Below, piece by piece: positions 35,375-36,420 of a DNA stretch of 64,000 nt; positions within the stretch are counted from its first letter, which is position 1, and every line of letters starts with the position of its first letter. This stretch comes from Escherichia coli phage vB_EcoM_Shy, in the sequence record MT833282.1, one strand, 5' to 3'. The notes under the pieces are model-generated. The model made no database searches. It had not been told where the DNA came from and was given only the letters and a program-made list of their open reading frames with translations. The position numbers were made by a program, and so were the translations under genes.

Positions 35375-35815
35375 TTAGAAAGGTTTTCTGCGTTGCTTGT
35401 TAATGTTAGCTTTCATAGCAGCTAAATGGTTTTGCTGTTCAATCAGTCGTGAACGTTCTTGATGGCTAAGTGCCATAGTGTTCACATTCTCAATCGCTTG
35501 AGTAGCTTGCTTTAAAGCACGACCAATCTTACCAGACATTTTACGTTTTGCAATAGTTGCTTGATGCTTAGGTTCGACAACACGATAACCAACACCCATT
35601 GAAGCAACCAGATAAATCTTCTCTTCTTTAAGAAGCTTCTCAATAAACTTCTCAAGTCGGTTTAGACGTGTAAGTGCATAAGCCTTCATTTCATCTTCGT
35701 ACTTAACAATGTCGCCTTGATAAGTTGGCTTCACAATACCTAAGAAGGTGTCCATCTCAGAATGTGATACAGTGTCACCGTAACTAAACTTTGCTGCTAA
35801 TGCTTTTGTATTCAT
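35375..35815 (-). CDS. hypothetical protein (cassette gene 2)
   Basis: 146-aa ORF, basic C-terminus; flanked by repeat regions. Confidence 0.55.
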   Translation of the reverse strand: MNTKALAAKFSYGDTVSHSEMDTFLGIVKPTYQGDIVKYEDEMKAYALTRLNRLEKFIEKLLKEEKIYLVASMGVGYRVVEPKHQATIAKRKMSGKIGRALKQATQAIENVNTMALSHQERSRLIEQQNHLAAMKANINKQRRKPF

Positions 35816-35817
35816 AA

Positions 35818-36420
35818 TTAAACGTTACCTTCTGAAATAACTTCTACAGAAAAACGACCAAAGCGTGGACGCCAATCACCTACACCACAAAGGTTACCAG
35901 CATTTTCCAGAACCATCAGGAGTTCCTCTCGTGTGATTTGCTCTTCATCGAACATCAAACCGAACTCTACAGACCAGTCACGGAAGATTGGACGGTAGCT
36001 CATAACTCGTGCTGTACCAATCTTAACAGACTTAGCATAGATAAAGTCTGGATTCTTAGCAAGTTCTTGTGGGTTTGCTGGACAGTTCTTGATAGTCATT
36101 GGGAAGACTACATCTGTCAGCATAATGGCTCGGTCAATTACCTTACCAAGTTTGTTGAGTTTTGCACCAGACTTGATGCAAGCCTCAATCATCTCACCGT
36201 TCATAACAAAACCTAGTTGCTCATCGTAGTAACAAGAAGTTACCAGTTGGCTTTCTGCTAAGAGCGCATAGTCTTCGTCAGTCTTTTTACGTTTACTGGA
36301 CAGAGACTTGTGATATTTTGTCAGAGGATTTAACGGGTCTGACAACGTATCGTTATGGCTCAGGAAAGGACGAGTACCAGTGATTTTGATATTTAACAGT
36401 TTCATAGCATTTAGCTCCAC
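35818..36420 (-). CDS. hypothetical protein (cassette gene 1)
   Basis: 200-aa ORF immediately upstream of 35375-35815 on the same strand. Confidence 0.55.

Follow-up and report, generated by a model that had tools for sequence, protein, structure and literature searches.

A repeat-bracketed gene pair in Escherichia coli phage vB_EcoM_Shy is very probably a type II VIPR locus, with guides aimed at a satellite in E. coli chromosomes

What is the role of two small genes that lie side by side between arrays of five-nucleotide repeats in Escherichia coli phage vB_EcoM_Shy, a Felix O1-like myovirus of the genus Felixounavirus, and do their products have anything to do with these repeats? The whole stretch of DNA analysed here, 64 kb of record MT833282.1, is called the window below. 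A preliminary description made from its letters placed a cassette of unknown function at 35375-36420, and suggested that the two proteins act on the repeats or form an accessory cassette, for example for anti-defence, moved between phages by recombination. We are highly confident that this is a VIPR (Viral Interference Programmable Repeat) locus of type II, belonging to the SUSP1 clade and comprising vipr, vap1 and five genes for guide RNAs termed vrRNAs. Such a cassette is already known and explained, having been described in two bioRxiv preprints (April-June 2026; 10.64898/2026.04.26.720920 and 10.64898/2026.04.26.720927). According to their available text, a VIPR system combines Vipr, a minimal RAMP protein of ~20 kDa, with an accessory vap gene and vrRNAs, in which alternating GGY and NN motifs are followed by a pseudoknotted 3′ tail. 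One Vipr protomer is reported there to cover each repeat, hiding the GGY, and the NN dinucleotides to pair with DNA of which every third base is skipped, leading to transcriptional silencing. SUSP1, the model phage of the same text, is a close relative from the same subfamily.

The assignment begins with the proteins. Both open reading frames (ORFs) named in the preliminary description are present on the minus strand, the second (35375-35815) encoding 146 residues. The first probably starts at ATG 36405 rather than at GTG 36420 and would then occupy 35818-36405 on the minus strand and encode 195 residues, since a GGAG lies about 10 nt upstream of this ATG and the resulting length equals that of the PDB chain and of the nearest homologues; 2 nt separate its stop codon from the start of the second gene. 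When checked against the PDB with phmmer, the 195-aa protein matched chain 36pp_D, 'SUSP1 Vipr protein', with an E-value of 1.7e-127 and four substitutions in 195 residues (~98% identity), which decides the assignment. The residues to which the preprint text assigns contacts with the GGY, with the skipped base or with the non-target strand (H17, K33, R39, E71, M72, K82, K88, R138, C173, D177, W178 and R179) are all kept, with their numbering unchanged; residue 175 is V in both the window and SUSP1, and is given as T175 in that text. The 146-aa protein is identical to SUSP1 vap1 at 145 of 146 positions (99%) and occupies the equivalent position. Neither protein has a family in Pfam, NCBIfam or PADLOC, in agreement with the earlier remark that no motif could be recognised, and PHROGs places the cassette proteins in function-unknown families only.

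In addition to these comparisons, we have modelled vap1. A word-based search returned its homologues in 3 clusters and an exhaustive HMMER search 234 relatives at ~30% identity, and it is because of these 234 relatives that the AlphaFold2 model is confident (pLDDT 96). The model has a winged-helix-like N-terminal unit followed by a long helical hairpin, and winged-helix domains rank first in Foldseek, all with E>0.5. The predicted fold would agree with the label 'predicted DNA-binding' in the available preprint text, adding nothing firm to it.

A scan of the 64 kb for 5-nt periodicity found exactly five arrays. None lies outside this locus; two come before vipr and three after vap1, which bears out the bracketing noted before. 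Read as GGYNN on the gene (minus) strand, the upstream tracts contain 18 and 11 units and the downstream tracts 12, 17 and 12. Over these 70 units, G stands at position 2 in 69/70 and a pyrimidine (T or C) at position 3 in 69/70, and the information content is 0.93/1.89/1.43 bits for GGY and 0.14/0.16 bits for NN. An Rfam search over the window left the repeats without a family and matched only 24 tRNAs. The features of the locus are listed here along the minus strand, with the NN code of the final unit in brackets.

36800..36827, minus strand: sigma-70-like promoter, TTGACA-16-TATACT, 11/12 consensus matches, upstream of the first vrRNA
36733..36767, minus strand: 5′ hairpin module before B1, 16-bp stem, -13.2 kcal/mol, z -3.9
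36643..36732, minus strand: vrRNA B1 tract, 18 units, NN: AT AA GC GA CA AA GA TT TT GC GA GC CC AA CC GC AA (AT)
36605..36642, minus strand: B1 3′ tail, type 1, GUAG...hairpin...CUAC, pseudoknot-capable
36571..36604, minus strand: 5′ hairpin module before B2, from folding and sequence
36516..36570, minus strand: vrRNA B2 tract, 11 units, NN: CT GT AG TG AT AT CC GT GT AC (AT)
36482..36515, minus strand: B2 3′ tail, type 2, GUGG/CCAC pseudoknot arms, GGUAG/CUACC stem
36421-36450, minus strand: weak promoter-like site, 9/12 consensus matches
35818..36405, minus strand: vipr, 195 aa, RAMP-like, polymerises on vrRNA in SUSP1, match to PDB 36pp
35375..35815, minus strand: vap1, 146-aa VIPR accessory protein, predicted winged-helix-like N-terminus and helical hairpin
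35338..35366, minus strand: intrinsic terminator after vap1 (scan match 35363-35348), from consensus scan and sequence
35311..35342, minus strand: 5′ hairpin module before A1, from folding and sequence
35251..35310, minus strand: vrRNA A1 tract, 12 units, NN: AG AC AT GG AG GA CT TT AA AG CT (AT)
35213..35250, minus strand: A1 3′ tail, type 1, from folding and sequence
35178..35212, minus strand: 5′ hairpin module before A2, from folding and sequence
35093..35177, minus strand: vrRNA A2 tract, 17 units, with an internal 20-nt duplication
35057..35092, minus strand: A2 3′ tail, type 1 variant, stem AAUCGGA/UUCGAUU
35021..35055, minus strand: 5′ hairpin module before A3, z -3.5, near-identical to that of B1
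34961..35020, minus strand: vrRNA A3 tract, 12 units, NN: CT CA GT CC AT AA AT TC TC AG TT (AT)
34927..34960, minus strand: A3 3′ tail, type 2, AAGG/CCUU and GGCAG/CUGCC
34880..34926, minus strand: inverted repeat closing the locus, 19-nt arms, holding the promoter-like site of the next gene

As judged from the sequence, the tails appear to consist of a hairpin and a pseudoknot whose pairing is kept through two-sided changes. The type 1 stem AGUCUCA/UGAGACU of B1 is replaced in A2 by AAUCGGA/UUCGAUU, a compensatory change, and the type 2 tails of B2 and A3 covary in both the stem (GGUAG/CUACC versus GGCAG/CUGCC) and the arms (GUGG/CCAC versus AAGG/CCUU). The final unit GGTAT probably belongs to the tail, since it is constant in all tracts and usually mismatches the target. 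A hairpin module of ~35 nt with a 16-bp stem precedes every tract. Its sequence is of one of two types, between which the outer stems covary. These modules probably lie outside the mature vrRNA of ~100 nt, and may serve for processing or as terminators of the unit before them. The preliminary description had also given the gene pair its own promoter and terminator. The terminator after vap1 is there; the strong promoter-like site precedes the first array, at 36800..36827, where it is also kept in SUSP1 and in cassette-less relatives, and directly before vipr there is only the 9/12 site. Since promoter- and terminator-like sites are not more numerous in the region than expected from shuffles, all of them are to be taken as consensus matches only.

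A further question is whether the variable NN positions spell out anything. Each tract was converted to its NN code, and matches were counted at skip lengths 0-3 in a sample of 18 satellite loci, of at least 474 satellite copies, with 100-200 composition-preserving shuffles per guide as controls. By this computation the guides are aimed at a ~10-kb satellite residing in E. coli chromosomes, namely at its tape-measure gene, its helix-turn-helix (HTH)-domain gene and an ORF of 185 aa. B1 units 7-17 match the tape-measure gene at 21/22 in antisense, and units 1-9 match another allele of it at 17/18 in sense; B2 matches a second site in the tape-measure gene at 18/20 (19/22 including the last unit), in antisense. 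For A2, units 7-16 match one allele of the HTH-protein gene at 19/20 in sense (units 7-17 at 21/22) and units 1-8 match another allele at 16/16, and A3 matches the 185-aa ORF at 20/22 in three satellites, in antisense. The scores of B1 units 7-17 (21/22), B2 (18/20), A2 units 7-16 (19/20) and A3 (20/22) were reached by 0 of 100-200 shuffles, and in the matches of B1 (units 7-17), B2, A2 (3′ part) and A3 the skipped base is the wobble base of the codon. With a skip of 0, 2 or 3, the satellites gave no more than background.

As positive controls, the guides of SUSP1, wV8 and dune match the same satellites at 21/22 to 27/28. Unit 6 of B2 reads AT in the window and AC in wV8, and satellite alleles carry the corresponding AT or AC. 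B1 and A2 look composite, since their parts match different alleles: the 5′ 8-9 units fit one allele of a satellite gene, and the 3′ 11 units fit another of its alleles or a second site within it. Within the window there are no self-targets, the best skip-1 match being 64-71% and the perfect hits being the tracts themselves at skip 3. The window thereby provides an independent computational check of the 1-nt-skip code of the preprints, with guides that their authors may not have used.

By analogy with SUSP1, for which alone the available preprint text reports vrRNA expression, co-purification with Vipr and silencing of matching DNA, transcription and processing of the pentamer arrays would yield vrRNAs of ~100 nt, in which a pseudoknotted 3′ tail follows a GGYNN tract. 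Each repeat would be bound by one Vipr protomer, which would sequester the GGY, and the exposed NN would pair with double-stranded DNA reading NNxNNx..., one base being skipped per repeat. A protein-held R-loop formed in this way on the target would block transcription, with vap1 strengthening the silencing, and the cassette would serve as a weapon against a satellite that probably parasitises the phage. The earlier proposal that the proteins act on the repeats accordingly holds in substance for Vipr, which binds GGY in the SUSP1 preprints, with the repeats being RNA guides and not DNA sites for protein binding; vap1, the 146-aa protein, has an accessory role and is not known to touch the repeats.

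Several points weigh against this assignment. Expression, processing, formation of the ribonucleoprotein and silencing are all carried over from the SUSP1 preprints, which are not yet peer reviewed. B1 and A2, with 18 and 17 units, exceed the range of 9-16 repeats that the preprint text gives for vrRNA tracts, and each of their targets matches only a part. The target of A1 is borderline, an intergenic site matched at 18/22 and 17/22 in two satellites, and 6/200 shuffles reach 18/22. Among the 18 satellite loci there is no perfect full-length guide match, and exact-pattern scans of IMG/VR with A1, B2 and A3 gave nothing. Apart from one match of 18/22, two satellites (L007 and L008) and eight relatives from IMG/VR contained nothing that a guide matched over its full length at 80% or more, and the hits given above emerged only after other satellite alleles had been sampled and parts of the long tracts had been scored. 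Shared tail genes are the only sign that the satellite parasitises the phage, and vap1 found no significant PDB match in the fold searches.

The satellite itself, which is mentioned in the available text of the VIPR preprint as having a baseplate gene in common with SUSP1, was traced through this gene. The phage copy (window 21312-22098) matches 474/5426 complete E. coli genomes (~9%), 225 of them at >=90% identity. The element is ~10 kb long and has, besides serine recombinases and small ORFs, genes for a tape-measure, a baseplate and an HTH protein (loci including L007, L008, L018-L021 and L032-L035); several chromosomal positions harbour it, among them ymdF/wrbA, mdtG, yciI/tonB and a gene for a DUF72-domain protein, and insertion sequence (IS) elements have often inserted into it. 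Since it holds a near-copy of the phage baseplate gene, with DNA identity reaching 95%, the satellite probably parasitises this phage. The phage is in this way linked to a satellite present in ~9% of complete E. coli genomes, and the predicted role of the cassette is in conflict between these elements rather than in classical anti-defence.

Some satellites bear a vrRNA gene of their own (L020 6280-6344 and L014 4729-4778) and no vipr. These genes have a sigma-70-like promoter, a phage-type type 2 tail nearly equal to that of B2 and an intrinsic terminator, and the matches of their codes lie in other satellites (22/24 and 16/18) and not in the phage, which agrees with a remark in the available preprint text. 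They were found by pattern only, in the fetched satellites; a blastn search of E. coli genomes with the repeat region gave no match.

As in the window, the SUSP1 VIPR lies between a gp86-like gene and a DNA ligase gene, and the promoter, the 5′ hairpins, the GGYNN repeat and the two tail types are shared, as is the class of satellite targets. In contrast, SUSP1 has 4 vrRNAs (1 + 3) and the window 5 (2 + 3), and no NN code is common to both. Farther away, a type II VIPR of a Pseudomonas fulva prophage, together with loci from Gordonia, Mycobacterium and Listonella phiHSIC phages and from Rhodococcus, has the same vipr-vap1 pair with flanking pentamer arrays. The protein identity of the P. fulva system and the other distant Vipr homologues is only 32-46%, their consensus is NNGGC in high-GC hosts, and their targets are, according to the accessible preprint text, prophage regulators, whereas those of the window lie in a satellite.

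A likeness to class 1 CRISPR-Cas (clustered regularly interspaced short palindromic repeats and associated proteins) is also described in that text: as with the Cas7-family RAMPs on crRNA, a protein with an RRM, a G-loop and a thumb polymerises on the guide, and the thumb periodically breaks the duplex. VIPR differs in having no CRISPR array, no cas1/cas2 and no protospacer adjacent motif (PAM), in silencing instead of cleaving, and in reading 2 bases in 5 of the guide and 2 bases in 3 of the target. The window does not belong to CRISPR-Cas itself, its repeats being pentamer tracts only, and no Cas hits were obtained in Pfam, NCBIfam or PADLOC.

Among relatives, defined as the 230 phage records of the group matched by a 2.1-kb query around the locus, the cassette is present in 117/230 Ounavirinae records at 90-100% identity, and the flanking tracts vary in number and content even among close relatives; the A1 tract is identical in wV8 and KhF3. 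The proposal of an accessory cassette is thus upheld by its presence in 117/230 records. The cassette-less relatives are structured as if the interval from the 5′ hairpin of B1 to the near-identical hairpin of A3 were absent, and it is plausible, as had been suggested, that recombination at the repeats caused the gain or loss of the cassette. More distant Vipr homologues number in the hundreds; in two such loci, from a skin-metagenome phage and from Rhodococcus, vipr is followed by a vap1 homologue (176-182 aa) and flanked by NNGGC arrays. The distribution of vap1 is narrower than that of Vipr.

Could the pair instead be a partition cassette, with the arrays as DNA iterons bound by both proteins? 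The GenBank note of KhF3, 'possible binding site of StbAB', points that way, and two small genes flanked by direct repeats recall parMRC. Neither protein, however, matches ParM/StbA, ParR/StbB or any family in Pfam, NCBIfam or PADLOC, the 195-aa protein is ~98% identical to one solved together with RNA repeats, the phage is virulent, and the NN positions encode matches to foreign genes through a gapped code, unlike a centromere, so that we give this explanation next to no credence. Hardly any weight falls either on a TRAP-like or Hfq-like ring protein that would bind periodic RNA and attenuate the phage's own genes. The G-rich 5-nt periodicity does resemble the spaced (G/U)AG triplets bound by TRAP, but the homologous SUSP1 complex is, in the available preprint text, a helical filament on RNA that binds DNA, and the NN code finds foreign targets, whereas self-targets are absent from the window. 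Such an attenuator is refuted by identity to the SUSP1 complex, whose structure has been solved. An iteron or origin reading was considered as well and was dropped.

Somewhat less remote, though still very improbable, is an anti-defence cassette directed against the immunity of the host, for example an inhibitor of CRISPR or of restriction; the repeats would then be no more than recombination hot spots through which it passes from phage to phage. The accessory distribution (117/230 relatives) would suit it, the repeated modules at its borders could recombine to delete or insert the cassette, and silencing an interfering satellite is itself a form of counter-defence. Yet the guides match satellite genes and not host defence genes, and a conserved GGY beside a hypervariable coding NN is unlike passive recombination sites. 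The anti-defence part of the preliminary description therefore survives only loosely, as counter-defence against a satellite and not against classical host defence. The value of the cassette itself lies in its correct annotation: together with five guide RNAs, vipr and vap1 make up an RNA-guided silencing system that has already been described.

The cassette being known, the part worth following up is found in the phages that lack it. There are 112/230 such records, including Felix O1, which has the same locus as FO1a at 100% identity. A tblastn search detected Vipr nowhere in these records, and they either lost vipr and vap1 or never had them; they retain the locus promoter, one GGYNN tract and a type 2 tail (for example FO1a, L004 2486-2767; also L005 and L027-L031). 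The occurrence of repeats in relatives without the cassette, which could have spoken against a link between the two, is thus seen narrowly, as one orphan guide each, and it strengthens this link because the guide matches vipr. When the orphan code was read in seven cassette-less phages, it matched the vipr of cassette-bearing phages in 7/7, at one of three sites, of which two lie in the window as follows.

35909..35937, minus strand: site of the Felix O1/FO1a/finno orphan guide in vipr, 18/20, the window differing by AA to CG, that is, K158R
36016..36044, minus strand: site of the ULIM9/DE7 orphan guide in vipr, 20/20, with ph2-2 matching the same site at 18/20

The guide of Felix O1, FO1a and finno falls on vipr codons ~156-165 and matches dune at 20/20, SUSP1, wV8, KhF3 and momo at 19/20 and the window at 18/20, and the Seyj1-1 orphan, a CT-to-TT variant, reaches 20/20 on the SUSP1 vipr allele. 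For the ULIM9/DE7 code, the next-best site in the window scores 14/20, and 0/500 shuffles reach 20. The third site, near the 5′ end of the SUSP1 vipr allele, is matched by the JN01 orphan at 15/16 in antisense. K158R, by which the window Vipr differs from that of SUSP1, changes both bases of one NN unit at the site of the Felix O1-type guides, and could be an escape from them.

Having no effector gene, the orphan guides would need the Vipr of a co-resident element. We put at about even odds a proposal, drawn from these code matches, in which the orphan RNA of a guide-only relative would be loaded by the Vipr of a co-infecting rival and turned on the rival's vipr operon, possibly also affecting early genes transcribed through it; the cassette-less phage, without the target site, would be immune. 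Virus-borne mini-CRISPR arrays and solitary repeat RNAs are analogous guide-only hijackers. If the proposal is true, Felix O1 and other full-sized virulent phages exploit VIPR with nothing but a guide, which would be an RNA-level counter-measure directed at the effector gene. The preprint text available states that satellites bear effector-less vrRNAs and that some guides of the P. fulva clade target other VIPR systems; in the same text, data tables aside, no mention was found of guide-only Felix O1-like phages aimed at vipr, and the orphan anti-vipr guides are possibly new. Like the satellite-borne vrRNAs of that text, the Felix O1-type orphans are guides without an effector gene; unlike them, they match the effector gene vipr itself.

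Some minor observations concern the records. In the databases both genes are called 'hypothetical protein', the older genome papers of Felix O1 and wV8 do not mention the locus, and the repeats are labelled 'possible binding site of StbAB' in KhF3 and DR_4 in wV8. The record of phage momo, whose downstream repeat region is 99% identical to that of the window, was opened within vipr, so that its gene 1 is a truncated vipr. At the skin-metagenome VIPR locus (L022 2507-2911), an ORF of 134 aa has been called across three NNGGC vrRNA arrays and is probably a spurious protein call. Felixounavirus sequence is also present in the records 'Staphylococcus phage SA1' and 'Campylobacter phage A126', which are probably chimeras or carry a wrong label; the annotation oddities lie in the public records MN850580.1, KT184315.1, EU877232.1, GU169904.1 and MG065668.1. 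Elsewhere in the window, the usual tail genes are present, and a cluster of 24 tRNA genes occupies 2281-7358 on the plus strand, as is usual for the genus and with no relation to the cassette.

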